NCBI GenBank assembly: GCA_965276595.1
Contig: CBDIBA010000002.1
Location: 2,802 to 66,801, forward strand
Direction of reading: 5' to 3'
Length of the DNA stretch: 64,000 nt
DNA from: Beijerinckiaceae bacterium
Lineage (GTDB): Bacteria; Pseudomonadota; Alphaproteobacteria; Rhizobiales; Beijerinckiaceae
Part shown: positions 1-36,093 of the stretch, in pieces
How the letters are laid out: each line of letters begins with the position of its first letter
How positions within the stretch are numbered: the first letter of the stretch is position 1
Made by a program: the position numbers and the translations under genes
The notes under the pieces: model-generated
Told to the model about the DNA's origin: nothing
Database searches by the model: none
What the model saw: only the letters and a program-made list of their open reading frames with translations

Positions 1-146
1 CGCAGATGCCGCGCCTCCTCAATCGGGAGAGGGCGCTCGACCGCATGCTCGCGATCGATCAGCGTGACGAGGGATCGCGCGCCGGTGGCGGCGACCGTGC
101 GCTCGATATGGGCGAGCGGGCAGACGTGGATGCGGGGCATGGCGCC

Positions 147-770
147 TCATCGGGATCGCTGGGCGGCGCTTTCGCTTTCGAGGCGCCGGAACGTCGACAG
201 GAACCGCTCTTCGGCTTCGTTCGAGGGCAGCGGCGCGATCAGCGCTTGCACGTCGCGCAGGCCGACGTCCGGTCGACCGAAGAAGGATTCGGCTTCGGCG
301 ATGGTGAAACCAGCCAGTTGTGTCGCTTCTATGAAAGCGGCGGCGCGATCGGCGCGCTTGATGAGCTTGGCGGCGCCGGGCGGGGCGGCGGCCGGCAGCG
401 AGAACCGCATGTGGATCGCCGCGAGAATGCGCGCTTCCACGCTTTTGTAGCTCGCGCCGACGGCCGCCTTGAACGGCGAGATGATGTCGCCGATCACATA
501 TTCCGGCGCGTCGTGCAGCAGCGCCATGAGGCGCGGCGCCGCGGGGCTTTCGGGATCGAGCGCCGCGGCGATGCGCTCGACGAGCAGCGAATGCTGCGCG
601 ACCGAGAAGATATGCGGCCCGCGCGTCTGCCCGTTCCAGCGCGCCACGCGGGCGAGGCCGTGCGCGATGTCCTCGATCTCGACGTCGAGCGGCGAAGGGT
701 CGAGCAGATCGAGCCGGCGGCCGGACAGCATGCGCTGCCAGGCGCGCGCCGTGTCCGACCGCGCCGCCAT
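147..770 (-). CDS. HD-domain hydrolase (YfbR-like 5'-deoxynucleotidase family)
   Basis: MAARSDTARAWQRMLSGRRLDLLDP...HSLLV...LHDAPEY (H...HD motif). The ATG at 770 overlaps the tag stop (TGATG), so the longer track ORF start was not used. Confidence 0.85.
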   Translation of the reverse strand: MAARSDTARAWQRMLSGRRLDLLDPSPLDVEIEDIAHGLARVARWNGQTRGPHIFSVAQHSLLVERIAAALDPESPAAPRLMALLHDAPEYVIGDIISPFKAAVGASYKSVEARILAAIHMRFSLPAAAPPGAAKLIKRADRAAAFIEATQLAGFTIAEAESFFGRPDVGLRDVQALIAPLPSNEAEERFLSTFRRLESESAAQRSR

Positions 771-1396
771 CAGCGGGCCTTCGCCAGCGCCGCGCATTCG
801 GCGTGGCGGAAGCAGGTCGTGAGATGGTCGTTGACCATGCCGACCGCCTGCATGAAGGCGTAGACGATCGTCGGCCCGCAAAACTTGAAGCCGGCGGCTT
901 TCAGATCCTTCGAAATGCGGCTGGACAGCTCGGTCTCGGCCTGGATCTCGCTGCGGTCGCGCAGCGCGTTCTGGATCGGGCGGCCGTCCACGTATTTCCA
1001 CAGATAGGCGGAGAATCCCTCGCGCTCCTCGATGGTCAGATAGACGCGCGCGGACGCGACCGCGCCCTCGATCTTGGCGCGGTTGCGCACGATGCCGGCG
1101 TCGCGCATCAGCCGCTCGATCTTGCGCGCGTCGTAGCGCGCGATTCGCGCCGGCTCGAAGCCGTCGAAGGCGGCGCGAAAGGCGTCGCGCTTGCGCAGGA
1201 TCGTGATCCAGGACAGGCCGGCCTGAAAACCGTCGAGCAGCAACTTCTCGAACAGCGCGCGGCTGTCGTATTCCGGCGCGCCCCATTCGGCATCGTGATA
1301 GGCGACGTAGAGCGGGTCGACGCCGGGCCAGGCGCAACGGCGCCGCCCGTCCTCATGCAGAACGGGAACGCGGAGCGGCGTATCGGGCGCGGGCAT
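770..1396 (-). CDS. tag: DNA-3-methyladenine glycosylase I
   Basis: YVAYHDAEWG, LDGFQAGLSWITIL, IVRNRAKI, GFKFCGPTIVYAFMQAVGMVNDH..C motifs. Confidence 0.95.
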   Translation of the reverse strand: MPAPDTPLRVPVLHEDGRRRCAWPGVDPLYVAYHDAEWGAPEYDSRALFEKLLLDGFQAGLSWITILRKRDAFRAAFDGFEPARIARYDARKIERLMRDAGIVRNRAKIEGAVASARVYLTIEEREGFSAYLWKYVDGRPIQNALRDRSEIQAETELSSRISKDLKAAGFKFCGPTIVYAFMQAVGMVNDHLTTCFRHAECAALAKAR

Positions 1397-1405
1397 GTCG
1401 CGAGA

Positions 1406-2212
1406 TTAGCGCCGCGGCGCCGGCAGCGCGAGCGAGACGGCGCGATTGTCCAGAAGGATCGGCGCGCCGGCCGCCACCGCCTCGGCGAGCCGATCGATCC
1501 GCACGGCGGCGAGCGCATGGCCGTCCGTCGCGGAACTGACGATTCCGATCTCGACGTCGTTCGCCACGAGCGCCGCGCCGATCGCGGGAATGTCGCCGTG
1601 AAAGGCGACCCGCGCGATGCGCTTGCGCGCGGTCCCGCGATGCTCGACGCGCGAGACGACCTCCTGCCCGACGTAGCAGCCCTTCTTGAAATCGACGCCG
1701 TTCAAAAGATCCATGTTGGCCTCGTGCGGAAACGCGTCGCCATAGGCGAAATCGGCGCCGCCTTTGGGGACGCCGCAGAGGATGCGCTGCGCCTCGTAGG
1801 CCGCGGCCTCGGCGTCGTCGCGCTCCACGCCGTCGCGCGCCACGATCTCCCGCGCGCCGAGCGCCGGGTCGCGCGGGTCGGGGACGCCCGCCTCCGACGC
1901 CCCGTGCGCGACGACGCCGAGCGCCGCGCTCACGTCGTCGATCTCGACCTTGGCGCGCAGCTTGTACAGGCGCAGGCGTTTGGCGAATTCGGCCGTCCGC
2001 GCGATCGGCGCATCGAGAACGAACGCCTCGCCGTCGGAACCGGCGAGAAAGTCGCAGACGATCTTGCCTTGCGGCGTCAGCAGCGCGCCATAGGCCGCGC
2101 GCTCGCGCGAGACGGGCGTCATGTCGCAGGTGAACAGGTCCTGCAGGAACGCCCGAGCGTCGGCGCCGCCGACGCGGACCACGCCGCGATCCTCCAGAAA
2201 CGCCGAGGGCAT
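1406..2212 (-). CDS. ygfZ: Folate-binding Fe-S cluster repair protein YgfZ/GcvT-like
   Basis: LLTPQGK and the signature DFKKGCYVGQEVVSR. Confidence 0.92.
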   Translation of the reverse strand: MPSAFLEDRGVVRVGGADARAFLQDLFTCDMTPVSRERAAYGALLTPQGKIVCDFLAGSDGEAFVLDAPIARTAEFAKRLRLYKLRAKVEIDDVSAALGVVAHGASEAGVPDPRDPALGAREIVARDGVERDDAEAAAYEAQRILCGVPKGGADFAYGDAFPHEANMDLLNGVDFKKGCYVGQEVVSRVEHRGTARKRIARVAFHGDIPAIGAALVANDVEIGIVSSATDGHALAAVRIDRLAEAVAAGAPILLDNRAVSLALPAPRR

Positions 2213-2301
2213 GCCTGCGTCCTTCCCGTTCCGCCGCGCTCTTGCGGGGCGCCCGCCCGCTCGCTAAGCCGCCAGGCCGGCCACAGCGCATATGGGGGCG
2301 C

Positions 2302-2362
2302 GACGCGATGACGACGACCTACGATCTCATCCTGAAAGGCGGCGCGCTCGTCAACCACGAGG
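2302..2362 (+). repeat. Copy 1 of a 61-bp perfect direct repeat (5' end of pyrC, truncated stub)
   Basis: gacgcgatgacgacgacctacgatctcatcctgaaaggcggcgcgctcgtcaaccacgagg is identical to 3046-3106. It reads MTTTYDLILKGGALVNHE and then diverges. Confidence 0.97.
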
Positions 2363-2513
2363 CGCGGTCAGCATGGTCGCCGTCATTCTCGGCCATGCGC
2401 TGGGCCGTGCGGCTTTTTCGAACGGGAGACGACTATCGATCGGAAAAGCGCAGGGCTCGCCTCGCAGTCGACCATTCGTGGGTACGGCTCATCGCCGCCG
2501 CGAATGTCCCAGT

Positions 2514-2741
2514 CTAGTCGCACCAAAATACGTTCCACCGCGGAACCGCGACGCGCGCAGCGTCGAAAGCATCGTTGACGAGATATTCCGGCAAATGGCC
2601 GTTGTCGTTCGGTTCGCGAATGATGAGCAGTTCGTTGGTTCGGCTTCGAAAGATGACCTGATGTTCCGTTGTTCCAATCTGCCGGAAGCCGATTGTTGCA
2701 AGATAGGTCACGATCTCGCCAAAATCGACACAGTAGATCAA
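2514..2741 (-). CDS. HicA-like toxin (putative)
   Basis: 75 aa. EIVTYLATIGFRQIGTTEHQVIF...HLPEYLVNDAF follows the HicA alpha-beta-beta-beta-alpha pattern with the conserved His. Confidence 0.5.
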   Translation of the reverse strand: MIYCVDFGEIVTYLATIGFRQIGTTEHQVIFRSRTNELLIIREPNDNGHLPEYLVNDAFDAARVAVPRWNVFWCD

Positions 2742-2743
2742 CG

Positions 2744-2959
2744 CTACGCAGCCGCGTCTTCGTATACCAGGTCGATTGCCTTCAACCGGCCGATGCTGTG
2801 ACCAGCGTCCGCGCGGCGAATGAAATCAAGCACGGCGACTGCGGCGCGCTCGGCTTCCTCTTCGGTCTTTCCGGTCACGTGAAAGCCGATGATGTCAGGC
2901 GAGGTCACGACGTGATACTCGCCGACTTTTTTGTGCTCGAGGCGAATGCGGCGATCCAT
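2744..2959 (-). CDS. Short HicB-like antitoxin (N-terminal domain only)
   Basis: YHVVTSPDIIGFHVTGKTEEEAERAAVAVL resembles the HicB N-terminal motif. Alternative start at 2977. Confidence 0.6.
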   Translation of the reverse strand: MDRRIRLEHKKVGEYHVVTSPDIIGFHVTGKTEEEAERAAVAVLDFIRRADAGHSIGRLKAIDLVYEDAAA

Positions 2960-3045
2960 TGACGTCTTTCGTTGCATTACCGAAATAAACTTGGCGACGA
3001 ACGGACGATATGTGGTCTGATCGCCCTAATAAATAGGAAATGTCT

Positions 3046-3106
3046 GACGCGATGACGACGACCTACGATCTCATCCTGAAAGGCGGCGCGCTCGTCAACC
3101 ACGAGG
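3046..3106 (+). repeat. Copy 2 of the 61-bp perfect direct repeat (start of intact pyrC)
   Basis: Identical to 2302-2362. Confidence 0.97.
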
Positions 3107-4377
3107 GAACGGGCCAGCGCGACATCGGCGTCAAGGACGGCAAGATCGCCGCGATCGGCGATCTGGCGCGCGCCTCGGCCGGGGCGATCGTCGGCTGTTC
3201 GGGCCTGCACGTTCTGCCGGGCGTGATCGACAGCCAGGTGCATTTCCGCGAGCCCGGGATGGAGCACAAGGAAGACCTCGAGACGGGTTCGCGCGCCGCC
3301 GTCCTCGGCGGCGTCACGACAGTGTTCGAAATGCCCAACACCAATCCCCTCACGACGAGCGAGGAGGCCCTGGCGGACAAGGTGGCGCGCGGCCGTCATC
3401 GCATGCATTGCGACTTCGCCTTCTGGGTCGGCGGCACGCACGAGAATGCGAACGACATCCCCGACCTGGAGCGCCTGCCCGGCGCGGCGGGGATCAAGGT
3501 GTTCATGGGGTCGTCGACCGGGTCGCTGCTGGTCGAAGACGATCCCGGCGTCGCCGCGATCTTGGCCAAGACGCGCCGTCGCGCCGCCTTTCACGCCGAA
3601 GACGAATACCGGCTCGAAGCGCGCAAGGGCCTGCGCATCCCCGGCGATCCGCGCTCGCACCCGGTCTGGCGCGACGAGATGACGGCGCTGCAATGCACGC
3701 AGCGCCTCGCGCGCATCGCCCGCGCGCACCGCGCGACGATCCACGTGCTGCATGTCTCGACCGCGGACGAGATCGACTTCCTGCGCGATCACAAGGACGT
3801 GGCGAGCGTCGAGGTGACGCCGCACCACCTCACGCTCGACGCGCGTCTCTACGAGACTCTCGGAACGAAGCTTCAGATGAACCCGCCGGTGCGCGACAAG
3901 CGCCACCAGGACCGCCTCTGGCAGGGCGTCGGGCAGGGGATCGCCGACATCCTCGGCTCCGATCACGCGCCGCATACGCTGGAAGAGAAGGCCAAGGCCT
4001 ATCCGGCGAGCCCGTCGGGGATGCCGGGCGTGCAGACGCTCGTGCCGCTCATGCTCGACCATGTCGCCGCCGGGCGTCTCAGCCTCGAACGCTTCATCGA
4101 CATGTCGAGCGCCGGCCCTGCGCGGCTGTTCGGCGTCGCGGGCAAGGGCCGCGTCGCGGTCGGCTACGACGCGGATTTCACCATCGTCGATCTCAAGCGG
4201 CGCGAGACCATCCGCGACGCCTGGATCGCCTCGCGCTGCGGCTGGACGCCCTACGACGGAAAGACGGTCACGGGCTGGCCGGTGGGGACCATCGTGCGCG
4301 GCGCGCGCGTCATGTGGGAGGGCGAGATCGCGACGCCCTCGCGCGGCGAGCCCGCGCGGTTCTGGCAAGCGCTTTAG
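3052..4377 (+). CDS. pyrC: Dihydroorotase (amidohydrolase superfamily)
   Basis: PGVIDSQVHFREPG, EMPNTNP, HVLHVST, VEVTPHHL, MNPPVR, GSDHAPH. Alternative start at 3040. Confidence 0.9.
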   Translation: MTTTYDLILKGGALVNHEGTGQRDIGVKDGKIAAIGDLARASAGAIVGCSGLHVLPGVIDSQVHFREPGMEHKEDLETGSRAAVLGGVTTVFEMPNTNPLTTSEEALADKVARGRHRMHCDFAFWVGGTHENANDIPDLERLPGAAGIKVFMGSSTGSLLVEDDPGVAAILAKTRRRAAFHAEDEYRLEARKGLRIPGDPRSHPVWRDEMTALQCTQRLARIARAHRATIHVLHVSTADEIDFLRDHKDVASVEVTPHHLTLDARLYETLGTKLQMNPPVRDKRHQDRLWQGVGQGIADILGSDHAPHTLEEKAKAYPASPSGMPGVQTLVPLMLDHVAAGRLSLERFIDMSSAGPARLFGVAGKGRVAVGYDADFTIVDLKRRETIRDAWIASRCGWTPYDGKTVTGWPVGTIVRGARVMWEGEIATPSRGEPARFWQAL

Positions 4378-4380
4378 GCG
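4313..4380 (+). repeat. pyrC 3' end, duplicated in degenerate form at 9407-9458
   Basis: The 21-bp core ggagggcgagatcgcgacgcc (4317-4337) is identical to 9410-9430, and the downstream cgcgcggttctggcaagcgctttaggcg resembles tgcgcggctccggcaggcgctctaggcg. Confidence 0.85.
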
Positions 4381-4389
4381 AAGCAACGT

Positions 4390-4458
4390 CGCGCCGCCCC
4401 TCACCCTAAGCCTGTCCCCGCAAGCGGGGCGAGGGGACGCATCGAGCGCGGCATCGGC
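4390..4458. repeat. REP-like hairpin family A (cccctcaccct...tccccgcaagcggggcgaggggac)
   Basis: Palindromic and homologous to 35948-36010 and 17325-17363. Confidence 0.85.
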
Positions 4459-4466
4459 CATTGTCG

Positions 4467-4545
4467 CGGTTGCGAGCGAAGCGAACGAGACTCGCTTCGA
4501 TGGGCTGGATTCGTCGTTGCGCTCCTCGCAAGGACGACGCTGGTT
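4467..4545. repeat. REP-like family B (CGTC-tagged type, degenerate)
   Basis: ttgcgagcgaagcgaa...cgctcctcgcaaggacgacgctggtt. The right end matches 17581-17604. Confidence 0.7.
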
Positions 4546-4614
4546 GGGAGCGCCCACGCGCGAGCCGGCTGTGTCCATGATGGCCGATCGCTGCGACGCC
4601 GCGATTAATAGGCG

Positions 4615-5058
4615 CTATCGATTGATTTCGGGCTCGACGAGGCGGGCGAGATTTCGCAGCGACTCCTGCCAGCCTAGATAGCACGCTTCCACCGGAATGG
4701 CGTCGGGAATGCCTTCCTGCACGATGGTCGCCTCGGCGCCGCAGAAGACCTGCTTCAGCGCCACGCTCACCTGCATTTCGCCCGGCAAATTGGGATCGTC
4801 GAACGTGTTCGTGTAGCGCAGGCGCTCGCCGGGCGCGAGCTCCAGATATGTCCCGCCGAAAGAATGGCTCGCGCCCGTCGTGAAGTTGCGGAACGACATC
4901 TTGAAGGCGCCGCCGACTTTCGCGTCGAGGCGATGCACCGTGCAAGCAAAGCCGTTGGGCGGCAGCCATTTCGCCAGCGCGTCCGCCTCGATGAAGGCGC
5001 GATAGACCTTGTCGGGCTTCGTCGTCAGGACACGGTGCAATCGAACGGTGTTGGGCAC
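4615..5058 (-). CDS. SRPBCC/AHSA1-like domain protein
   Basis: RLHRVLTTKPDKVYRAF...KWLPPNGF...ACYLGWQESLRNLARLVE. Confidence 0.9.
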   Translation of the reverse strand: MPNTVRLHRVLTTKPDKVYRAFIEADALAKWLPPNGFACTVHRLDAKVGGAFKMSFRNFTTGASHSFGGTYLELAPGERLRYTNTFDDPNLPGEMQVSVALKQVFCGAEATIVQEGIPDAIPVEACYLGWQESLRNLARLVEPEINR

Positions 5059-5287
5059 GGCTGTTTCTCCCGAGCAGGCGCTTCGACGAGGCGACGGGTC
5101 GTGACCTTACATCGTCCGACCCGGTCCGTTAACCGAGGCGTCCGGCGTGGGTCCGATCGTCAAGGAGGGAATCGAACATCAGGATCGGCCGATACGCCGC
5201 GTTGCCAGACCCTTCGGGCCTCTTTAACCCCAGCCTCGACGGCAATGTGAGGCGCGCCATCGATTGGATTAGAGCGAACCAGCAGTC

Positions 5288-6046
5288 TCAGGTTCCCCCG
5301 GACGCAGTCCGCCAGTGCAGAAAATACGCTTCGATCTGGATGAACACGAAGTTCATGAAATAACCGAGCACGCCGAGCGTGAAAATGCCGGCGAACATCT
5401 CGGGCACGCGAAAGATGCGCTGCATGTCCAGGATGAAGTAGCCGACGCCGCTGTTGCCGCTGATCATTTCAGCGATAATCGACACGATGAGAGCAATACC
5501 CAGGCTGATCCGCATTCCGGTCAGAACGCTTGGCAATGCGGCCGGTAGGACGATCTGGCGGAGCGCCCTGCCGCCGGTCACGTTAAATGTCCGGCCGGTG
5601 TCGATCAGGATGGGATCGATCCCCCTGACGCCACCGTAGGTGTTCAGCAGGGTCGGAAACACGCACGCGATGAAGATGACAAAAATTTTCATCTCGTTTC
5701 CGATGCCGAGCAGCAAGATCGCCACTGGGATGTATGCCGAACTCGGAATTGGCCGGATGATCTCCGTTATCGGTTCTAGAAGCCGGTAGGCGAAGGGAAC
5801 CGTTCCCATCAAAAGACCCAAAGGCACGGCCACGAGGGTCGCAAGCAGGAAACCGGAGAAGAGTCGCCACAAGGTGGGGCCCAACTGCCTCGGGAGCTCG
5901 CCGTCGGCGATCGTCTCAGCCCACGACGCCAGAATGGTGCTCACGCGGGGAATGGAGACGGTATCGACAAGACCTGTCGCAGAGGCAAGCTCCCAAAGGG
6001 CGAGAAGCGCCGCGATCAGCGCAAAGCCGGGTAGACGAGCCCTCAC
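5288..6046 (-). CDS. ABC transporter permease (SsuC/TauC/NitT family)
   Basis: Multi-TM protein with EIIRPIPSSAYIP and ALPSVLTGMRISLG. GTG at 6046 with GGAGG RBS. Confidence 0.9.
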   Translation of the reverse strand: MRARLPGFALIAALLALWELASATGLVDTVSIPRVSTILASWAETIADGELPRQLGPTLWRLFSGFLLATLVAVPLGLLMGTVPFAYRLLEPITEIIRPIPSSAYIPVAILLLGIGNEMKIFVIFIACVFPTLLNTYGGVRGIDPILIDTGRTFNVTGGRALRQIVLPAALPSVLTGMRISLGIALIVSIIAEMISGNSGVGYFILDMQRIFRVPEMFAGIFTLGVLGYFMNFVFIQIEAYFLHWRTASGGT

Positions 6047-6159
6047 GCTATCGCCTCCAAGATCTCGATATCTCCAGCGTTTCAGAGCTTTCGGCGCTCC
6101 TTGCATTCAAGCTCTCATCTGTCAGTATCGTATTACTCGATGTAACGTCCAAAGGCATG

Positions 6160-6963
6160 ATGAGCGACGTTCCTGTTATTGAACTGGCCAATATCACCAA
6201 GAGCTATGGCGGCGGCGGCCGCAGTGTCTCGGTGTTCAGAGACTTCTCTTGCAAGATCTTCGCCGGCAGCTTCGTCTCCATCGTAGGGCCGTCCGGCTGT
6301 GGTAAATCAACGCTGCTCAAGCTTATCGCGGGCCTGGAGTCTACGTCGGGCGGATCCCTGTTTTTCAACGGGCGCAAAATTTCGGCGCCGCCGAAGGGCG
6401 TGATCTACGTTTTCCAACAATATACGAAGTCGATCTTTCCATGGCGGACGGTGGTTCAGAACATCGCCTTCGGCGTAAGCAACCAGCAGTCGATTGGCGG
6501 CTCGGTCCTGCGACAGAAGTGCAGCGAATATGCCAAGTTGGTGGGGCTCGAGGGATACGAAGACTACTATCCTTCGCAATTGTCGGGAGGGATGCAGCAG
6601 CGGGTCGCCATCGCGCGCGCCCTGATTTGCGAACCGCAGGTTCTTTTGATGGACGAGCCTTTCAGTGCAGTCGACGCGATGACCCGGGCGCTGCTCCAGG
6701 AGCTGCTTCTGAAGATATGGCAAACGATCCCGGTCACGATTCTTTTTGTGACCCACGACGTCGATGAGGCGGTGTTTCTGTCTGACCGTATTTTGTCGCT
6801 CGGCAGATCCCCCGCATCGCTTCGCGAAGACGTATCTGTGGATCTCCCCTACCCGCGAGACCAGATCGAAACCCGCGGCCTCGACGAGTTTCGCGCAATC
6901 CGTCAAAAGCTGTTCGCAAGTATCTTCCTTCAAGAAAAGGCGATCGCTGCGGAGCAGCACTGA
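6160..6963 (+). CDS. ABC transporter ATP-binding protein (SsuB/TauB family)
   Basis: Walker A GPSGCGKST, LSGGMQQR, LLMDEPF, VTHDVDEA. Confidence 0.93.
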   Translation: MSDVPVIELANITKSYGGGGRSVSVFRDFSCKIFAGSFVSIVGPSGCGKSTLLKLIAGLESTSGGSLFFNGRKISAPPKGVIYVFQQYTKSIFPWRTVVQNIAFGVSNQQSIGGSVLRQKCSEYAKLVGLEGYEDYYPSQLSGGMQQRVAIARALICEPQVLLMDEPFSAVDAMTRALLQELLLKIWQTIPVTILFVTHDVDEAVFLSDRILSLGRSPASLREDVSVDLPYPRDQIETRGLDEFRAIRQKLFASIFLQEKAIAAEQH

Positions 6964-7147
6964 CATGCCGCCGGCAGACTTAAGGCCGGAGTCCGAAATC
7001 AGAACCGACATCTCAGAGGCCGCAGGCCCGCAAGGAAACCCCTCGCAGCCTCCGCCCAGGACCTCCGACGCTTGCCCGAGAAGCAATCGTAAAATCGACG
7101 ATGATCGGCGCGCGTCGTGCGCTCGTTGCGAGCATGCCCAGCCTGCT

Positions 7148-8218
7148 TTATTGAACGATGCTCGTTCTCGCTCTGACCTGGGCTTCGGCCGCCGAATTGG
7201 ACAAGCCGCGTTCGCGGCCAAGCAACGGAAGGACATCCTCGGCGAACATGTCGAGCTGTTCCAGCATCGGGGAGAACTTCAGCATCAAGAGCTCGATCCC
7301 GATGTCCTCTAATCTGCGAATCCGTTCGGCGATGACCTCGGGGGCGCCGATTAGTCCGACGCCGATCCCACTGACCGCGATAGCGGGAATTCGGCCGCCC
7401 TTGCCGTAAGCCGCAAGTTCGTCTGCTCGAAGCATCGCCTCTTCGTTGGTCGTCGCGCAGACGACGTGGGCGTTGAGGGCGCAGCGGACGTTGCGGCCGT
7501 GAGCCGAGCTTCGCTGGCGCATGTCCCGAACTTCGCGCGCAATTGCAGACCAGTGTTGTTCGTGCGCCTTGTGATCCGCGCCAGCCATGATGAACCAAGT
7601 ATCGCAATGCTTCGCGATGGTATCCTTGCCCGCCTCAGTCCTGCCGGCGGCGTAGATGGGAGGGCAAGGCGATTGTTGCGGCTTGAAGGGCACCTCTCCC
7701 AGCACAACCTTGAAGAAGTCTCCGCCGAACGAGAAGTTCTCTTCGGTCCAAAGTCCCTTAAGGACTTGGATGAATTCGTCGATTCGTCGGTATCGTCCTT
7801 GGTCGTCGTCGAGCCAGCCGCCGTTGCCGAAGATATTGAACTCTTCCTTGTGCCAACCGCCGACGACATTCACCGCGCACCTTCCTCCGCTGATGCGATC
7901 AAGGGTCGCCCCCATTTTTGCGGCGATCTGCGGGCAAATGATGCCGGGATGGACCGCCGGCATGATCTTGATGCGAGTGGTCTTCGCGGCAAGGGCCGAA
8001 GACAGCATCCACGATTCAAGATCCGGCCCAAGAAAACGTTCGGCGACGAGCGTTATTGAGAACCCGTACGCTTCGGCCTTTTGCAACACGTCTATGGCGA
8101 ACTGCATCGCCAGATCGGGTTTACCGGGCCCGCGGAGCGCGCTGCTCGCTATTGCCGCGGCCATCGTGGGCTCGTCACGAATCGTATGCGGAAGAGGCGT
8201 CCAGATACCGAAGTCCAT
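7148..8218 (-). CDS. LLM-class flavin-dependent monooxygenase (SsuD-like)
   Basis: AKMGATLDRISGGRCAVNVVGGW, F.FGGDFFKV, PPIYAAG. Confidence 0.88.
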   Translation of the reverse strand: MDFGIWTPLPHTIRDEPTMAAAIASSALRGPGKPDLAMQFAIDVLQKAEAYGFSITLVAERFLGPDLESWMLSSALAAKTTRIKIMPAVHPGIICPQIAAKMGATLDRISGGRCAVNVVGGWHKEEFNIFGNGGWLDDDQGRYRRIDEFIQVLKGLWTEENFSFGGDFFKVVLGEVPFKPQQSPCPPIYAAGRTEAGKDTIAKHCDTWFIMAGADHKAHEQHWSAIAREVRDMRQRSSAHGRNVRCALNAHVVCATTNEEAMLRADELAAYGKGGRIPAIAVSGIGVGLIGAPEVIAERIRRLEDIGIELLMLKFSPMLEQLDMFAEDVLPLLGRERGLSNSAAEAQVRARTSIVQ

Positions 8219-8260
8219 CCATCGCCCCTTTTAAACAGCGTTGTTCACCCCCTTAAGTCA

Positions 8261-9229
8261 TCATCTCTCGCCCTTCCCGACCACGTATGGCGTAATCTCT
8301 TTTGAGAAATACTCGGCGGCCTGATGCGATTTTTTAAGCTCGCCTGAACTCCTGAGCAACTCGATCAACTCCTGCCACCGGTCGGGCCTAACGCGGTAGT
8401 CCCAGCCGATCAGCGGCATCATTTTGACAAGTCCCGCGTCGAGCCCCGTGAAGGCCACAACCTTCTCATGCGCCCTTTCCGGATCAGCGTTCAGGAATTC
8501 GTCGGCTTCCTTTAGCGACTTGCCGAACTTGGCCACGGCATCCCCGTTTTTCTCCAAGAAGCTGCGTTTGACCCACCACGAACCCAGAGGCTGCTGCGGG
8601 ATCGATTCGACATAGTTCCACGAGATGACCCGACCGATCCCCCTTGCGGTGAGCACCGTCGTGAAGGGGTCGACCGTCACCACGGCATCGACCTGCTTTG
8701 TCCTGAGGGCGTCCACGTGGGCTACAAAGGGCAACTCGACGAACTGAACCTTGGATAAGTCCACTCCGGCTTTCTGCATCACCGCTTGGGCGTCAAGGGT
8801 TGCTTGATTGCGAAACTGAAGGATGGCGACCTTCTTGCCTTCGAGATCGCGGAGCGTTTTGATGTCGGAATCCACGCGAACCTGAACCGAGCCGGAATCC
8901 GGCGGTGTCGCCTTCGCAATCTCGTTTTGGAAGACAAGCGCCAGGTCGAACCCGCGCTCTACAGCGATCAGCGCCCCGCCCGGAATGACCTGCACAATGT
9001 CGACGCTGCCTGCCTGCAGCGCCCCGATCATATCGGTACCGCCTTGCATTTCGACGAAGCTCACATCCAGTCCGTTCTTCTTGAAAATTCCCTCGTTTAA
9101 GGCGACCCACGCGTTGGTGAGAGCCGCGATCTTGAGGGTCCCGGCGCGCAACGTTTCTGCAGAGACCGTTGAGGCGCAAATTCCGAACAGGGAAGTTAGA
9201 ATGACGAGCTTCTGAAGCCACGCTTTCAT
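8261..9229 (-). CDS. ABC substrate-binding protein (SsuA/THI5/NitT family)
   Basis: Signal peptide, then GIFKKNGLDV, DLEGKKVAI, ALRTKQVDA. Confidence 0.88.
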   Translation of the reverse strand: MKAWLQKLVILTSLFGICASTVSAETLRAGTLKIAALTNAWVALNEGIFKKNGLDVSFVEMQGGTDMIGALQAGSVDIVQVIPGGALIAVERGFDLALVFQNEIAKATPPDSGSVQVRVDSDIKTLRDLEGKKVAILQFRNQATLDAQAVMQKAGVDLSKVQFVELPFVAHVDALRTKQVDAVVTVDPFTTVLTARGIGRVISWNYVESIPQQPLGSWWVKRSFLEKNGDAVAKFGKSLKEADEFLNADPERAHEKVVAFTGLDAGLVKMMPLIGWDYRVRPDRWQELIELLRSSGELKKSHQAAEYFSKEITPYVVGKGER

Positions 9230-9406
9230 TCTTCGTCTCCTTGCGCTCTCGCAAACTTCCCCAACACTTCAAGTCGTCAGCCTACGGACGGAAATATTAC
9301 TGTCAATCCTCTGTCCGGACTTTTGTCGATAGCTCCTGAAAATGTCCGATCTGGTAGCAAAGGCCATGTGGATCGCGCATCGCCTGATCGATGACAGCGC
9401 CTGTGG

Positions 9407-9458
9407 TGTGGAGGGCGAGATCGCGACGCCTGCGCGGCTCCGGCAGGCGCTCTAGGCG
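9407..9458 (+). repeat. Degenerate copy of the pyrC 3' end including its TAG stop
   Basis: Aligns to 4313-4380 with an internal deletion of about 15 bp and several substitutions. Confidence 0.8.
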
Positions 9459-9460
9459 CT

Positions 9461-10468
9461 TCAGGCGTCGCGCCGATAGGCCTGATACCAATCCACGAAG
9501 GCGCGCACGCCCTCTTCGATCGAGGTGTGCGGGCGATAGCCGGTGATGCGTTCGAGCGCCGCGCCGTCGGCGACGGTGCGCGGCGCGTCGCCCGGCTGCA
9601 TCGGCATGAGGTTGCGGATCGCCTTGCGCCCCAGCGCGCGCTCGATCGCATCGACGAAGTCGGTCAGCTTCACCGGCTCGCCGCGGCCGATGTTGACGAC
9701 GCGGTAGGGCGCGACGGGCGAAAGCGTGCGATCCGCGCCGGCCTCGCCCGAACCGGGCGGCGGCGGCCGCTCCATCAGAAGCTCGATCGCGTGCACGAGA
9801 TCCTCGACATAGGTGAAGTCGCGCCACATCTCGCCGTGATTGTAGAGATCGATCGGGCGTCCGTTCTCGATCGCCTCGACGAATTTGTTGAGCGCCATGT
9901 CCGGCCGCCCCCACGGGCCGTAGACGGTGAAGAAGCGGAAGCAGGTCGTGGGGATCGACCACAGATGCGCATTGGAATGCGCCATCGCCTCGCCGGCCTT
10001 CTTCGTCGCTGCATAAAGCGTCAGCGGGTAATCGGCGCGATGATCTTCTGCGAACGGAAGGATCGGGTCCGCGCCGTAGACTGAGCTCGTCGAGGCGAAC
10101 AGGAAATGCCCGACCCGCCGCGCGCGCGCCATCTCCATGACGTTGAACGCGCCGACGAGATTGGAATCGACGTAGGCGCGCGGGTTCTCGAGGCTGTAGC
10201 GAACGCCGGCCTGCGCGGCGAGATGCACGATGACGTCGGGTTGCGACGCCTCGACTGCGGCGCTCAGCGCCGGCGTATCTTCCAGCATGGCGAGATGCGC
10301 GTGAAACGCGTTGGAGCGCTGCAGGATCGCGAGACGCGCCTGCTTGAGGCGGACATCGTAATAGGGCGTCATGCCGTCGAATCCGTCGACCTCGTGGCCA
10401 TGCGCCAGCAATCGCGACGCGAGATGGAAGCCGATGAAGCCGGCCGCGCCGGTGATGAAGACGCGCAT
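9461..10468 (-). CDS. NAD-dependent epimerase (UDP-glucuronate 4-epimerase family)
   Basis: [54 protein letters not shown]. Confidence 0.92.
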
Positions 10469-10473
10469 GGCGT

Positions 10474-10974
10474 TCAGCCCTCCAAAGGTCCGAGCGGGCG
10501 CGCGCCGCCGAGGTCGATGCGCGCCAGGAGATCGGCGACGCGTTCGCCGCCGATCTGCGCGTGCGGCGCGATCTCCGCCAGCGGCCCCAGCACGAAGGCC
10601 CGCTCGCGCGCGCGCGGATGCGGGACGCTCAGGCCGGGCTCTTCGATCGTCGCGTCGCCATAGGCGATGAGGTCGACGTCGAGCGTGCGCGGTCCCCAGC
10701 GTTCGCCGCGCCGGCGGCCGCGCTCGGCTTCGACGGCGAGGCAGAGATCGAGCAGCGCGCGCGGAGACAGCGTCGTGCGCAAAACGGCGGCCATGTTGAG
10801 GAAGTCCGGCTGATCCGTCTTGCCCCAGGGCGGCGTGCGCCAGACGCTCGAAGCGATCACCTCGCGCACGCCCGCGCTCGCGCGCAGCCGCGCGAGCGCA
10901 TGACGAAAGGCGGCGCGCACGTCGCCTTCGTTGCCGCCGAGCGACAGCGTCGCGAGAACGCCCTCAGGGTTCAC
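10474..10974 (-). CDS. folK: 2-amino-4-hydroxy-6-hydroxymethyldihydropteridine diphosphokinase
   Basis: [31 protein letters not shown]. Confidence 0.95.
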
Positions 10975-11350
10975 GGGCCGCGTCTTCGCGCGTCAGCCGC
11001 AACTCGGCGCCGGCGGCGGCGATATGCTCGGGGATCGGCGGTTTCAGCTTCATCACGCGCACGAACACCGCGCTCACGGAGGGAAACCGCGACAGCAGCC
11101 CGCGCGCGAGCTCGACCGCGGCGCTCTCCACCAGCTTGTGGCGCCGCGTCGTGAAGATCTCGCGCGTCGTCGCGACGATATCGCCGTAGTCCAGCGCGTC
11201 GGCGAGGTGGTCGCTTTGCGCCGCCCGGCCGACGTCGGTTTCGAGTTCGAGGTCGATCATGTAGGGCTGCCCGAATTCGCCTTCGTGCCTGTGCCAGCCG
11301 TGATAGGCGTGCAGTTCGAGATCGTGGATCAGAACCTTGCCGACGAGCAT
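10964..11350 (-). CDS. folB: Dihydroneopterin aldolase
   Basis: HAYHG..HE...GQ, D L.DALDYG, KLVES, VMKLKPPI. Confidence 0.92.
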   Translation of the reverse strand: MLVGKVLIHDLELHAYHGWHRHEGEFGQPYMIDLELETDVGRAAQSDHLADALDYGDIVATTREIFTTRRHKLVESAAVELARGLLSRFPSVSAVFVRVMKLKPPIPEHIAAAGAELRLTREDAAREP

Positions 11351-11359
11351 ATGCTTCTC

Positions 11360-12331
11360 CTAGGCCGGACGCCGCATGATCGCCGCATAAACCTTCATCG
11401 CGTCGAGATGCTCCGCGACATCGTGCGCGCGCACGATGGCCGCCCCCGCCATCGCCCCGATGACCGCGGCGGCGAGCGAGCCGGCGAGCCGCTCGCGGGC
11501 GACGGCTCGGCCGCTCGCCTCGCCGATCGAGCGCTTGCGCGAGGCGCCGAGCAGAATCGGAAACCCGAGCTCGCGCAGGCGCGGCAACTCGCGCATCACG
11601 ATGAGACTCTGCGCGTTCGTCTTGCCGAAGCCGACGCCCGGGTCGACGATGATCTTGTCGGGCGCCACGCCGGCGGCGAGCGCGATATCGATCGAGCGGC
11701 GCAGGAAGTCGAGCACGTCGGCGACGATGTCGATCGAGGAATCGACCTCTTCGCGGTTGTGCATGACGACGATGGGAACGCCGTGCTCGGCGACGACGCG
11801 CGCCATGTCCGGGTCCTGCTGCAGACCCCACACGTCGTTGGCGACGCTGGCGCCGGCTTCGAGCGCGGCGGCGCAGACGCTCGCCTTGCGCGTGTCGATC
11901 GAGATCGGCAGATCGGTTCGCGCCGCGAGCCCGGCGACGACGGGGATCGCGCGGGCGCGCTCGTCGTCCGCATCGACCGGGCTGTGCCCGGGCCGCGTCG
12001 ATTCCCCGCCGATGTCGAGGATGTCCGCGCCGTCGTCCGCGAGGCGCAGGCCATGCGCGAGCGCGGCGGCGGAATCGAGAAAGTCGCCGCCGTCGGAGAA
12101 GGAATCGGGCGTCACGTTGACGATGCCCATGACGAGCGGGCGAGGCCCGAGCGCGAGCGGCCGGCGCGCCTTCTGGGCGCCGCGCTCGGCGAGAGGCGCG
12201 TCCGCGCCGGAGGCCGGCGGCGTGATGTCGCGCGCCCGCGACAGCGGGTCGGCCGCGCGGCCGGTGTCGTCGAGCGCCTTTTTCGCGCCGCGCACGCCGC
12301 GCCCCAAAGCGTAGAGATACTTGTCGAACAT
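11360..12331 (-). CDS. folP: Dihydropteroate synthase (start uncertain; N-terminal extension)
   Basis: MGIVNVTPDSFSDGG, DIGGESTRPG, VDPGVGFGK, GASRKR, RAHDV. Confidence 0.93.
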   Translation of the reverse strand: MFDKYLYALGRGVRGAKKALDDTGRAADPLSRARDITPPASGADAPLAERGAQKARRPLALGPRPLVMGIVNVTPDSFSDGGDFLDSAAALAHGLRLADDGADILDIGGESTRPGHSPVDADDERARAIPVVAGLAARTDLPISIDTRKASVCAAALEAGASVANDVWGLQQDPDMARVVAEHGVPIVVMHNREEVDSSIDIVADVLDFLRRSIDIALAAGVAPDKIIVDPGVGFGKTNAQSLIVMRELPRLRELGFPILLGASRKRSIGEASGRAVARERLAGSLAAAVIGAMAGAAIVRAHDVAEHLDAMKVYAAIMRRPA

Positions 12332-12369
12332 CGCCGCCCCGCAAGCGCCGTCGGCGCAGGCTCAATCGC

Positions 12370-13482
12370 TCATCGCTCGAACGGCCACGCCGGCGCCGCG
12401 CCGACCTGGCCGCGATGGCGCAGGAACGCGTCGGCCAGCACGATCGCCATCATCGCCTCGCCCACCGGAACCGCGCGGATCCCGACGCAGGGGTCGTGAC
12501 GGCCCTTGGTGCGGATTTCGGTCTCGGCGCCGAACCGGTCGATCGAGCGTCGTGGCGTCAGGATCGAGGAGGTCGGCTTGACCGCGAAACGCGCCACGAT
12601 CGGCTGCCCCGTCGAGACGCCGCCGAGCACGCCGCCGGCGTGGTTGGACAGGAACAGCGGCCGGCCGTCGTTTCCCATGCGCATCTCGTCGGCGTTCTCC
12701 TCGCCGCTGAGCGAGGCCGCCGCCACGCCGTCGCCGATCTCGACGGCTTTCACGGCGTTGATCGACATCAGCGCGCCCGCGAGCTCGGCGTCGAGCTTGC
12801 CGTAGAGCGGCGCGCCCCAGCCGGGCGGAACGCCGTCGGCGGCCAATTCGATCACCGCGCCGCAGGACGAGCCCGCCTTGCGCACGCCGTCGAGGTAGTC
12901 TTCCCAGCGCGCGGCCGCCGTGGCGTCCGGACAGAAGAACGGGTTCTCGTCGACCGCCTTCCAGTCCCAGTTCGCGCGGTCGATCGCGTGCGGGCCCATC
13001 TGCACCAGCGCGCCGCGGATCGTCACGCCGTCGACAATCTTGCGCGCCACGCCGCCGGCGGCGACGCGCATCGCGGTCTCGCGCGCCGAGGAGCGGCCGC
13101 CGCCCCGGTAGTCGCGCACGCCGTATTTGGCGTCGTAGGCGTAGTCGGCGTGGCCCGGCCGATAGGCGTCTTTGATCTCGCCGTAGTCCTTGGAGCGCTG
13201 ATCGACGTTCTCGATCATCAGGCCGATCGGCGTTCCGGTCGTCGCTTGCGCGCCGGCCTCGTCGCGCATCACGCCGGACAGGATCTTGACCTGGTCGGGC
13301 TCCTGCCGCTGCGTTGTGAAACGCGAGCGTCCCGGCCGGCGCTTGTCGAGGTAGACCTGCAGGTCGGCCTCGGTCAGCGGGAGGCGGGGCGGGCACCCGT
13401 CGATGACGCAGCCGATCGCCGGCCCATGGCTTTCGCCCCAGGTCGTCACGCGGAAGAGATGGCCAAACGTGTTGTGCGACAT
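12370..13482 (-). CDS. aroC: Chorismate synthase
   Basis: MSHNTFG...TWGESHG, RPGHAD, RSSARET, GRHDPCV. Confidence 0.97.
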
Positions 13483-13748
13483 CGGCGGGCTCGGGCGCCC
13501 GATTACTAGGGGCGGCGTTCCGCGCGGTCAAATGACGCGACCTGCGCATTGTCGCGTGTCGCAGCGGACACGACGCGAACGTCGTCGATGCGCCGTCGAG
13601 GGGAGCCGGCCGGCGTTTCGTTCCCTCGATCGTCGACAAACCGTGATAAAGGTCGTCGCCGGTTAAATTGCGGGGCGTTGTCTTCCCGCGAGCCTGGCTT
13701 GGGGGCCCGTGAGCGGGCGAGATCACGAACGACACGCGTGGTGTTTCG

Positions 13749-14759
13749 ATGCGATTCCGCCGTCCCGCCAATACGGATTGCGACATCTCCGAAATCGGCT
13801 TCGGCTGCGGCGGCAACGCCGGCCTGATGACGCGTGGAAGCGCCGCCGAACAGGAGAGGATCATCGGCCGCGCGCGCGATCTCGGCGTCAATTATTTCGA
13901 CAACGCGCCCGACTACGGCGACGGGATCGCCGAAACACATCTCGGCGATGCGCTGCGGACGCTGAAGTGGCGACCGCTGCTTACGTCGAAGGTTGAAATC
14001 CGCGCCGAGGATTTGGGCGACATCGCCGCGCATGTCGTGCGTTCGACGGAAGACAGCCTACGGCGGCTTCGCGTCGACCGGCTCGACTTTCTGCAAATCC
14101 ACAACGGCCCGACGCGCGCCGGATTCAAGCCGGAGGGCCGCGCTTACGCGCAACTGGCGTACGAGGATTTCGTGCGGGACGGCGGCGCCCTCGAAGGGCT
14201 TGCTAAGCTCCTGCGCGACGGCAAGGCCCGGTTCGTCGGCTTCGTCTGCCGCGGCGACGACGGCGCCTATGTGCGCCAATTGCTCGACGCCACGACATTC
14301 CACATGCTCAACATTCCCTACACCCTGCTCAATCCGAGCGCCGGGATGGCCAAGCCCGACGGGCTCGCCGGACGCGACTTCGGCCGTGCGATCGTCGAGG
14401 CGCAGAAGCGCGGCGTCGGGGCCGCGATCTACGCGCCGCTCGCCGGCGGCCTTCTGACCGACGCCGCCATCGACGGCGCCCCGCTGCATCCCTTGGCGCG
14501 CGTCAACGATAGGCAATCGGCGTCCGCGCAACGGATGCTCGCCATGGCGAAACGATTTCGGTTCCTGAGGCAGGAACTCGGCGGAACGCTGGCGCAGGCG
14601 GCGGTGCGCTTCATCTTGGCGCATTCCGGCGTCACGACGGCGATCGGCGGATTTTCTTCGGCCGAGCAGATGGAGGAGAGCGCCGCCGCATCGGATGCGC
14701 CGCCGCTCGACGATACGATCATGGCGCGCATCGCCGACGTCTGGCGGGCGCCGCCTTGA
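13749..14759 (+). CDS. Aldo/keto reductase
   Basis: SEIGFG, YFDNAPDYGDG, SLRRLRVDRLDFLQIH, YAPLAGGLL. Confidence 0.85.
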   Translation: MRFRRPANTDCDISEIGFGCGGNAGLMTRGSAAEQERIIGRARDLGVNYFDNAPDYGDGIAETHLGDALRTLKWRPLLTSKVEIRAEDLGDIAAHVVRSTEDSLRRLRVDRLDFLQIHNGPTRAGFKPEGRAYAQLAYEDFVRDGGALEGLAKLLRDGKARFVGFVCRGDDGAYVRQLLDATTFHMLNIPYTLLNPSAGMAKPDGLAGRDFGRAIVEAQKRGVGAAIYAPLAGGLLTDAAIDGAPLHPLARVNDRQSASAQRMLAMAKRFRFLRQELGGTLAQAAVRFILAHSGVTTAIGGFSSAEQMEESAAASDAPPLDDTIMARIADVWRAPP

Positions 14760-16115
14760 TCATTCCGCCGGCGCCGGCGCCCCCATCTGCGCCACTTGGA
14801 ATTCCTCGATGCGCCGGTGCAGTTCCTTGACGAGATCGACGGCCGGCCCGTAGCGGTCGGCGTCGTCGGTCGCAAAGCCCTTGTGATACATCTTGCGGAA
14901 CGTTTGGCTGATCGACAGGTCCCGCGACGCCCAGTCGGGCTTGACCCAGTTCTCCGGCTCCGCGCCGCCATGCAGCATTCCGGCGCGCTCCTCACGGAAC
15001 ACGTTCAGCGGATCGTCGCCGCGCTCCACCTTGGCGATTTCTTGATCGAGTTGCCGGCGCAGCAACGCGATCGGCACGTCGGTGCGCCCGAGTTTCTCCT
15101 GCGAACGATCGACGATCGGTCCTTGCGCCACCCAGACGATGATGTCCTGCGCCAGGACGAAATCGAGAATAGGCCGGCCATTCGCGTCCTTGAGCGGGGG
15201 CTCGTACCAGGGAACGATGTCCTGATGGGGCGCCTCCACGCCCGGCGGCGCGGCGTAGCACTGGTAGCAGATGTGATAGGTGTGCGTGTCGTCCATCGGC
15301 ACGCGGATCTGAAATTCGCTGCGCGGCGACCCCGGTTTGCCGGTCTGCGTATAAAACGGAAAGATCACCGCCGAGTGCTTGCGCACGCCGTCCGTGTCGG
15401 CGCCGAGCTCCCTCGAATAGGCGATGCCCTTTTCAAACCCATACTCGGTCAGGCTGGCGTTCACGTCCTTGATGCCGAGGCCCCATTTCTTGCGTGTGTG
15501 CAGCGTATGGGTCTGGCTCTCGGCGCGGTTCTGCATGCCCTGGCGCTCGAGAACGTACTCGAACATGTGGCCGTGCGTGTAGACGCTATGCGTCGGATCG
15601 CCGGTGTTCTCCTGGCACTGCAGCCAGTTGCAGTCGATGACGTTGATCCCGATCTGCCGGACGGCGTTCGGCCAAACGTAAAGGTCCCATTTCGGCAGCG
15701 CCGGCGCGGGGAGCGGACCCATATAGGCGAAGACGAGCCCGCCGAGCTCCCGCACGGGGTAGGCCTTCATCTTATGGTTGAATACGGTGTCGGGCTTCTC
15801 CATCGGCCGTTCGAGGCAGGTTCCGTCCTCGCCGAAGAGCCAGCCATGATAGGGACAGCGCAGGCCGCACTCGTCGGGGATGCCGTATTGCAGGTCGACG
15901 AGCCGGTGCAGACAGCGATCGCCGATCAACCCCAACCCGCCCTGCTTGTTGCGGTAGAGAATCAGGTCCTCGCAGAGCACGCGCACTTTACGGACCGGAT
16001 TTTCGAGCAGCTGCGCGAAGGGCCCGATCGGGATCCAATATCGGCGCATGAGTTCGCCGCAGGGCGTTCCCGGTCCGACCCGCGTCAGCCGTTCGTTTTT
16101 TTCGGGTGTGATCAC
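14760..16115 (-). CDS. Rieske non-heme iron oxygenase alpha subunit (phthalate 4,5-dioxygenase/LigX-like family)
   Basis: LTRVGPGTPCGELMRRYW, Rieske CLH...CPYHGW, ENTGDPTHSVYTH. GTG at 16115 with GGAGG RBS. Confidence 0.88.
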   Translation of the reverse strand: MITPEKNERLTRVGPGTPCGELMRRYWIPIGPFAQLLENPVRKVRVLCEDLILYRNKQGGLGLIGDRCLHRLVDLQYGIPDECGLRCPYHGWLFGEDGTCLERPMEKPDTVFNHKMKAYPVRELGGLVFAYMGPLPAPALPKWDLYVWPNAVRQIGINVIDCNWLQCQENTGDPTHSVYTHGHMFEYVLERQGMQNRAESQTHTLHTRKKWGLGIKDVNASLTEYGFEKGIAYSRELGADTDGVRKHSAVIFPFYTQTGKPGSPRSEFQIRVPMDDTHTYHICYQCYAAPPGVEAPHQDIVPWYEPPLKDANGRPILDFVLAQDIIVWVAQGPIVDRSQEKLGRTDVPIALLRRQLDQEIAKVERGDDPLNVFREERAGMLHGGAEPENWVKPDWASRDLSISQTFRKMYHKGFATDDADRYGPAVDLVKELHRRIEEFQVAQMGAPAPAE

Positions 16116-16131
16116 AGGCTCCTCCCAAGCT

Positions 16132-17172: not shown

Positions 17173-17324
17173 CCATAATCCTCCTCGCCCGAAATCGGCT
17201 TGCGACATCGGTAGGGCGACAGTCTAATCGTCCGCCGTCGCGCTGCAAATCGCATGAGGGGCTTTGCGGGGCGCCGAAACCAGATCGTCATTAACGCAGA
17301 TGGCGATGGCGCAATGTTGTCCCG

Positions 17325-17459
17325 CCCCTCACCCTCACCCTCCCCGCAGGCGGGGCGAGGGGATCTCCACGTCGCCAACACGCTGGCGTTTGGACGAGCG
17401 TCTGCCGCAGCGCTCCCTCTCCCCGTCGCGACGGGGAGAGGGCCGGGGTGAGGGGCGAA
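17325..17459. repeat. Inverted pair of family A REP-like hairpins
   Basis: cccctcaccct..tccccgcaggcggggcgagggga ... ctccctctccccgtcgcgacggggagagggccggggtgaggggc. The right hairpin is near-identical to 36041-36093. Confidence 0.88.
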
Positions 17460-17507
17460 CGATCATCGAGTTCGGCGTCGGCCATCGTCGGCCTTGTGAC
17501 TCCGCGT

Positions 17508-17650
17508 CGTCATTGCGAGGAGCGCAGCGCAACGTCAACCCAGCAGCGATGCGATCCCTAGGTTGCTTCGTCGCCTTCGGCTCCTCGCGATGACGACGCT
17601 GGTTCGGCCCGTCGTAACGACGGTGTGGCTTCGCTCCGCTCGCGATGACG
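17508..17650. repeat. Family B CGTC-tagged palindromic element plus an extra right end
   Basis: cgtcattgcgaggagcg...gctcctcgcgatgacg (17508-17595) and gcttcgctccgctcgcgatgacg (17628-17650). Confidence 0.85.
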
Positions 17651-17697
17651 TTGCGCTCCGCTCGAAACGCCAATGTCGCCCATCGCCCGCAATGAAC

Positions 17698-35947: not shown

Positions 35948-36093
35948 CGCGCCGCCCCTAACCCTCTCCCCGCAGGCGGGGAGAGGGGACGCATCGAGCG
36001 CGTCATCGGCGAGCGATGCCGATTCGCATGAGTGGGCGCGGCAGCGCTCCCTCTCCCCGTTGCGACGGGGAGAGGGCCGGGGTGAGGGGCGAA
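35948..36093. repeat. Inverted pair of family A REP-like hairpins between convergent genes
   Basis: The left part matches 4390-4458 and the right part matches 17408-17459. Confidence 0.88.

Follow-up and report, generated by a model that had tools for sequence, protein, structure and literature searches.

We analyzed a 64,000-nucleotide stretch of DNA (hereafter, the window) from contig CBDIBA010000002.1 of a Beijerinckiaceae bacterium, in which the start of the dihydroorotase gene pyrC is present twice around a short islet carrying a putative toxin–antitoxin (TA) gene pair. We found that positions 2302–2362 and 3046–3106 are identical over exactly 61 bp, which confirms the original prediction of a duplicated pyrC start around the islet. 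We favor, with moderate confidence, the reading that the 61 bp were duplicated in situ when the islet was inserted, either through the filling-in of a staggered break or through template switching. The locus is composed as follows (aa, amino acids; UTR, untranslated region).

2302..2362, plus strand: repeat copy 1, at the ancestral position (6 bp of 5' UTR and the first 55 nt of pyrC)
2363..2513, minus strand: islet tail, the 151 bp that follow the hicA-like gene, GC 0.64
2514..2741, minus strand: hicA-like gene for a putative toxin of 75 aa, with a TTG start that follows the hicB stop by 2 nt, GC 0.53
2744..2959, minus strand: hicB-like gene for a putative antitoxin of 71 aa (77 aa if read from the upstream in-frame ATG 2977), GC 0.60
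2960..3045, no strand assigned: islet head, 86 bp, GC 0.43, with AGGAA at 3035–3039 and an in-frame ATG at 3040
3046..3106, plus strand: repeat copy 2, heading the intact pyrC
3052..4377, plus strand: pyrC, dihydroorotase, intact, 441 aa from ATG 3052 (445 aa if read from the islet-derived ATG 3040)

The duplication was recovered by a direct-repeat search of the window, in which it is the sole long exact direct repeat. When the 61-mer was searched with up to three mismatches, only these two sites were returned, and none was found in 100 dinucleotide-preserving shuffles. The identity ends abruptly on both sides (left edge, c at 2301 vs t at 3045; right edge, c at 2363 vs g at 3107): copy 1 is preceded by ...catatgggggcgc and followed by cgcggtcagc..., and copy 2 is preceded by ...taaataggaaatgtct and followed by gaacgggcca.... 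As had been claimed from the sequence, copy 1 follows native ygfZ–pyrC intergenic DNA and then runs into unrelated sequence, and copy 2 opens the intact pyrC behind an AT-rich leader, namely the islet head. The product of this gene matched the dihydroorotase model NF006559 along profile positions 1–441 (788 bits, 1.4e-237). Residue 5 of the 445-aa reading is matched to profile position 1, so that ATG 3052 is the native start; its counterpart in copy 1 is ATG 2308. The pyrC start also has a 12-nt inverted match at 2375–2386, which was taken as chance, since about one such match is expected per 900 bp.

The 683 bp between the copies (2363–3045) differ from their surroundings in composition. The windowed GC content was 0.52–0.61, compared with approximately 0.70 around the islet, and the GC content at third codon positions (GC3) was 0.645 and 0.72 in the two islet genes vs 0.90 in ygfZ and pyrC. 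Judged by its composition, the islet DNA is foreign to the host. The head is presumed to be the promoter region of the hicBA pair and, since the insertion, directly precedes the intact pyrC as well. No similarity was found for the tail, which had no DNA match in other loci of the HicB/HicA-like family. Its plus-strand RNA (2363–2470) was unusually stable (minimum free energy, −49.4 kcal/mol; z = −2.68; 2 of 200 shuffles as good), whereas the minus-strand RNA of the same segment was not (z = 0.11), and a weak terminator-like hairpin with a T-run was present on the plus strand at 2396–2411. The islet had no Rfam match.

The ancestral arrangement was reconstructed from relatives and from the genes to the left of pyrC.

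770–1396, minus strand: 3-methyladenine glycosylase gene (tag), PF03352
1406..2212, minus strand: ygfZ, encoding a CAF17/YgfZ folate-binding Fe-S assembly factor (TIGR03317, 2e-26; PF25455; PF01571)
2213..2301, plus strand: native ygfZ–pyrC intergenic region, with the presumed native pyrC promoter, 5' UTR, and a Shine-Dalgarno-like GGGGG at 2295–2299

A PyrC scan using one genome per species yielded 80 loci in Hyphomicrobiales relatives, with identities of 72–83%. The best locus reached 83%; uncultured Rhizobiales and Beijerinckiaceae metagenome-assembled genomes, Methylocapsa, and Methylocella ranked first, and Phyllobacterium, Mesorhizobium, Brucella, and Roseibium came next. A ygfZ gene lay divergently upstream of pyrC in 76 of the 80, with the start codons 70–225 bp apart (median: 97). 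None of these 76 syntenic relatives had HicA- or HicB-like sequence between the two genes, and no insertion in pyrC was found in any of the 80 relatives examined. In the window, the distance from the ygfZ start is 95 bp to the ATG of copy 1 and 839 bp to that of copy 2. Moreover, an empty site reconstructed by joining 2362 to 3107 was colinear with the relatives across the intergenic region, the ATG, and the first codons. From the spacing and the colinear empty site, it follows that copy 1 is ancestral and that 744 bp (the islet plus one repeat) were inserted in this lineage. The 61-bp repeat differed from the homologous segment at 11–22 of 61 positions in the 12 nearest relatives compared, which indicates that both copies are this lineage's own host DNA. 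The original prediction also called the event recent. The perfect identity of the copies, the foreign composition, and the absence of the islet from the 76 syntenic relatives speak for this part of the claim; conversely, the relatives share at most 83% identity in PyrC, an empty allele of the same species was not found, and gene conversion is another possible reason for the identity of the copies.

Support for the two copies came from three runs of a single sample, in independent Logan contigs (k = 31); all statements on these runs concern contigs only. The contigs break exactly where a 61-bp exact repeat predicts, that is, into a flank reaching to 2331, a 61-nt repeat node, an islet node (2333–3075), and a flank from 3077. 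The contig depths were as follows.

X1: left flank 5.7, repeat 14, islet 7.6, right flank 7.26
X2: left flank 2, repeat 6, islet 3.05, right flank 3.9

In the third run of the sample, the islet depth was approximately 2 vs a flank depth of 2.1, and both repeat–islet junctions were present in the contigs of all three runs. These depths, approximately 1:2:1:1, fit two repeat copies and one islet per genome. The predicted presence of two copies is thus matched by the doubled repeat depth, in k = 31 contigs that cannot by themselves prove linkage across 61 bp.

In a 2021 sample of a second study (X5), two 151-nt islet pieces were present that look like one read pair and differ from the window at 0 and 1 positions. 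Further 151-nt pieces matched the window at 34677, 44108, 45355, and 50083. These sparse pieces place the same species there at very low coverage, which shows only the co-occurrence of the species and the islet sequence. We therefore rejected the interpretation that X5 holds the islet in a second genomic context, which had been considered since X5 contained 32% of the islet words and 0% of the flank words, with nothing else in 1–20000. The exact PyrC, YgfZ, and HicB proteins of the window were not on record.

We then consider the cargo. The 75-aa protein matched no Pfam family at E ≤ 0.1 and no NCBIfam model. Its homologues fell into 13 clusters (74–76 aa), and PF07927 (HicA_toxin) was matched by 3 of 14 sequences (best, 4e-6). 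Its AlphaFold2 model had a high predicted local distance difference test score (pLDDT, 95.6), and the top three Foldseek matches were the HicA structures 6g26_E/F and 1whz (probability, 1.0; template modeling score, 0.61–0.74; root-mean-square deviation, 2.3–2.4). By this model, the protein is predicted to have the HicA fold, which resembles a double-stranded RNA-binding domain. A profile of the HicA-like proteins retrieved 47 proteins at E ≤ 0.001 among 1.84 billion cluster representatives, and because there were only 47 representatives, we regard them as a small, distinct subfamily of the HicA fold. The subfamily profile matched no canonical HicA among solved structures. Three motifs were invariant: MIYCV at the N-terminus, NDAFD in the second helix, and VFWCD at the C-terminus. 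The catalytic His of the HicA toxins studied so far is His23/24/28/36 (PMC11594946). His27 of the window protein lies in the expected strand region, where the column is occupied by H/R/E/G/A/L/D/I across the subfamily, and His49 was kept in 10 of 14 members. Separately, the C-terminal part of the toxin profile matched four larger proteins, namely P0045 (1369 aa), P0050 (533 aa), P0054 (503 aa), and P0064 (381 aa), in 5–6 stretches each; by sequence, these appear to be repeat proteins with an NDAFD-like motif.

For the 71-aa protein, just three other homologous clusters were found among 5.8 billion proteins (66–75% identity), one of which is labelled HicB-family nuclease by its source. The equivalent Met is the start of these homologues (69–71 aa). 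Its match to PF15919 was sub-threshold (E = 0.029), and the best sequence match of its family profile in PDB was HicB 6g1c (E = 0.037). The core of the structural model had a pLDDT of 84–92, and the top Foldseek matches were all HicB (6g1n, 6g1c, 1wv8, and 3k6q; probability, 0.95–0.98). The protein consists of the N-terminal HicB domain only, without the DNA-binding domain, and past helix 33–53 it ends in a low-confidence tail; the model predicts the partial RNase H fold of the HicB N-terminus. A short HicB without a DNA-binding domain and the gene order hicB–hicA are both common variants (PMC11594946).

By predicted folds and gene arrangement, the pair fits the HicBA type, with the toxin activity being putative. 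The original prediction had called the islet "TA-like", and this description held at the fold level, with HicA and HicB as the top Foldseek matches, and through conservation of the pair in seven of eight other loci (see below). Like type II HicAB systems (HicA, PF07927; HicB, PF15919/COG1598), the islet carries a two-gene operon of small proteins with HicA and HicB folds. It differs from them in that the HicA-like protein has no Pfam match and in that the expected catalytic His position is variable, whereas MIYCV, NDAFD, and VFWCD are invariant. The islet pair is a new member, from a rare subfamily, of the HicAB-type modules and not a new kind of system.

The family was examined at eight other independent loci (L081–83, L084–85, L086, L087–89, L090, L091, L092–93, and L094). 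In seven of the eight, the pair (68–87 aa, mostly 71, plus 74–76 aa) stands alone among unrelated housekeeping or metabolic genes, such as those for amidohydrolases, homoserine dehydrogenase/glpX, and TctC/EamA. At L081–83 (L081:4001-5333), the gene downstream of the closest HicB homologue (P0004) encodes a 328-aa protein without a Pfam match, and no HicA-like protein is encoded; the 328-aa protein may be an alternative partner of the short HicB at this locus. The DNA similarity between the window and the other loci was confined to the coding region (66–70%), and the DNA common to L090 and L087 amounted to 489 bp only, from position −41 of hicB to the hicA stop. L087 and L088 represent one locus (99% identity). 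None of the eight loci had long flanking direct repeats. We therefore rejected flanking repeats as a trait of the family and conclude, from loci that are bare and lack long flanking repeats, that the module moves as a nearly bare gene pair and that the 61-bp duplication is peculiar to the insertion in the window. In addition, a fragment of a DDE_Tnp_IS1595 transposase (L089:251-682) lies approximately 220 bp upstream of a P0003-type hicBA pair.

Based on these results, we propose that a 683-bp foreign fragment was inserted after nt 55 of pyrC in a Beijerinckiaceae-like alphaproteobacterium. Its cargo would have been the hicB-like/hicA-like bicistron only, with 86 bp upstream and 151 bp downstream, and both 61-bp copies would have been templated from host DNA during the insertion instead of being carried in by the element. 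The fragment may have been ligated into a break with strand cuts 61 nt apart, followed by fill-in; alternatively, replication may have switched template into the foreign DNA and returned 61 nt behind its point of departure. In-situ duplication explains the perfect identity of the repeats without further assumptions. Because the duplication starts 6 bp before the pyrC ATG, the full reading frame was regenerated downstream, and this presumably allowed an insertion into a gene of pyrimidine biosynthesis to persist. The route was probably illegitimate. Pfam scans detected no integrase or transposase in the islet or in the genes from 147 to 13482, which comprise tag, ygfZ, pyrC, and genes for an AHSA1-like protein, an ABC transporter, a luciferase-like monooxygenase, an epimerase, folK, folP, and aroC. 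There was no tRNA gene in the window, the islet ends (2363/3045) showed no terminal inverted repeats, neither plasmid nor phage DNA matched the islet, and the toxin profile returned no viral or metagenome locus. Since the eight other loci lack long flanking repeats, the repeat is no signature of a transposition machine specific to the family.

Several points weigh against in-situ duplication at insertion of a TA module. The case is a single, metagenome-derived instance, and the k = 31 contigs do not prove linkage across the repeat. An empty allele of the same species was not found, and a pattern for both alleles gave 0 matches in JGI metagenomes. Staggered cuts of 61 nt are not documented for any known bacterial enzyme. 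As to the cargo, the column of the canonical HicA catalytic His is variable in the subfamily. Finally, an attL–insert–attR structure derived from a circle carrying the 61 bp would look identical.

This last point leads to Campbell-type integration of a small circle that already carried the 61-bp pyrC start, with the repeats as attL/attR, the main rival explanation, which we consider less likely than duplication in situ. Integrase could have been supplied in trans, the islet being either an integrase-less remnant similar to a cis-mobilizable element (CIME) or what is left of a large island at pyrC after deletion down to an addictive TA pair, or a RecA single crossover could have been responsible. 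Integrative elements are classically recognized by direct repeats of a target gene end that leave the gene whole; the insert has a foreign composition, TA pairs are frequent cargo that outlasts island decay, and a circle form would fit the de Bruijn graph equally well. However, the islet and the 147 to 13482 region lack an integrase, pyrC is unoccupied in 80 of 80 relatives and thus no recurrently used target, and the eight other loci lack such repeats. In addition, the 61 bp are lineage-specific host sequence, so the circle would have needed to capture them earlier from the same species.

It is unlikely that the insertion is older and that the two copies were kept identical by gene conversion or selection. 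The event is only loosely bracketed, as the nearest genomes are 83% identical in PyrC, and the islet also occurs in the 2021 sample of the second study. Nevertheless, the GC3 of the islet genes (0.65–0.72) has not ameliorated towards the host value of 0.90, and there are 0 mismatches in 61 bp although copy 1 is no longer under coding constraint. Even less credence is given to the idea that the 744-bp unit is a recombinase-less mobile circle using host or trans recombination, or that naked TA modules insert by a dedicated process that makes long duplications; if true, this would be the first direct view of chromosomal TA spread without mobile-element machinery.

An assembly artefact or extrachromosomal form (an empty chromosome plus a 744-bp circle, or an islet from another genome) is highly improbable: at k = 31, flank–repeat–islet–repeat–flank does equal flank–repeat–flank plus a loop, and only contigs were available, but both junctions lie in independent contigs of three runs, the islet depth equals the flank depth and the repeat twice that in each run, a 744-bp circle without a replication function is unlikely to be kept at 1:1 in every library, and 150-nt reads cross the 61-bp repeat, which a standard assembler would resolve from reads. 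A large tandem duplication followed by internal deletion was rejected, since it predicts a second islet, whereas the islet depth is that of a single copy and the window holds no second one.

The favored in-situ duplication can be compared with known modes of insertion. ICEs (integrative and conjugative elements) from the SXT/R391 group in prfC are likewise located in the 5' end of an essential-pathway gene, with target repeats and element-derived upstream DNA. Such 5'-end integrative elements are tens of kb long, encode their own tyrosine integrase, and have short, imperfect att cores (17 bp in SXT), whereas the islet is 683 bp long and without a recombinase, and its repeat is 61 bp long, perfect, and host-specific. 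Among the hallmarks of integrative elements, flanking repeats of the target end were present; a recombinase and recurrent use of the target were not found. The islet shares with transposons and insertion sequences a perfect direct duplication of host target DNA. Known bacterial target-site duplications are approximately 2–15 bp long, compared with 61 bp here, and the islet lacks a transposase and terminal inverted repeats.

Illegitimate integration in bacteria takes place by homology-facilitated or double illegitimate recombination at transformation, or by capture through non-homologous end joining or template switching. One published report deals with homology-facilitated illegitimate recombination (HFIR; PMC3240628). 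Arbitrary fragments and end points and a lack of mobile-element hallmarks characterize illegitimate integration as they do the eight unrelated contexts of the TA family. For these pathways, which are defined by microhomologies at the junctions, a flanking target duplication of 61 bp is to our knowledge not on record as a standard outcome. Searches of the literature for TA islets with long duplications of their target returned nothing specific.

Chromosomal TA pairs are notoriously mobile, usually without mobility genes, and their entry into new sites is poorly documented. The scar described here looks fresh, in that the fragment barely exceeds two genes and a 61-bp host duplication rescues a housekeeping gene, and it is a useful clue to the spread of bare TA modules. 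If the joining mechanism were established, the locus would be a tangible case of a TA module being captured illegitimately, and of an insertion by which the promoter and ribosome-binding region of pyrC are rewired and the gene is brought into convergent transcription with a TA operon. Furthermore, the HicA-fold subfamily, which is rare, is variable at the expected catalytic His position, and shows invariant motifs, is a modest target for biochemistry.

The insertion may also affect the expression of pyrC. The native GGGGG lies 8 nt before ATG 2308, and the native upstream region is now 744 bp further from the intact gene. Instead, the native signals precede an orphan reading frame.

2308..2517, plus strand: orphan fusion open reading frame (ORF) with the native pyrC start, 18 PyrC codons, and then 51 codons read antisense across the islet tail and the 3' end of hicA

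This ORF, which keeps the native signals upstream of it, is probably a by-product. Its stop codon (2515–2517) overlaps, in antisense, the stop codon of the hicA-like gene (2514–2516), probably by coincidence. For the intact pyrC, the islet-derived AGGAA lies 12 nt before ATG 3052 and an in-frame ATG is located at 3040, so that translation may start from either of these islet-derived signals. No consensus sigma-70 promoter was detected in the islet head on either strand. Transcription could originate in the AT-rich head, or it could reach pyrC by read-through from the native promoter, antisense to hicBA; such read-through would have to cross the structured tail (2363–2470) with its hairpin (2396–2411) and then the antisense strand of hicBA. 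The dependence of pyrC expression on islet signals, as predicted from the sequence, is plausible. At 61 bp, the repeats are long enough to recombine occasionally through RecA, and the resulting deletion would bring back the wild-type locus. If active, the TA pair would penalize cells in which the repeats recombine and the islet is lost, and stabilization of the islet by the putative TA pair, which presumes an active toxin, is likewise plausible.

Other features of the window include a GC-rich palindromic interspersed repeat, CCCTAAGCCTGTCCCCGCAAGCGGGGCGAGGGGACGCATCGAGCGCGGCATCGGC, at 4404–4458, 17340–17363, and 35956–36010 (91–96% between copies), one copy of which (4404–4458) sits just downstream of pyrC; it looks like an intergenic element of the repetitive extragenic palindromic (REP) type. 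Two pairs of 102-nt direct repeats were also observed, at 32628–32729/34066–34167 (87%) and 17389–17490/36023–36124 (82%). Additionally, four genes at 5288–9229, encoding an ABC permease, an ABC ATPase, a luciferase-like monooxygenase, and an NMT1/SsuA-like binding protein, had a GC3 of 0.72–0.74, compared with approximately 0.9 in neighboring genes, and because of this lower GC3, the block may be an older acquired operon.

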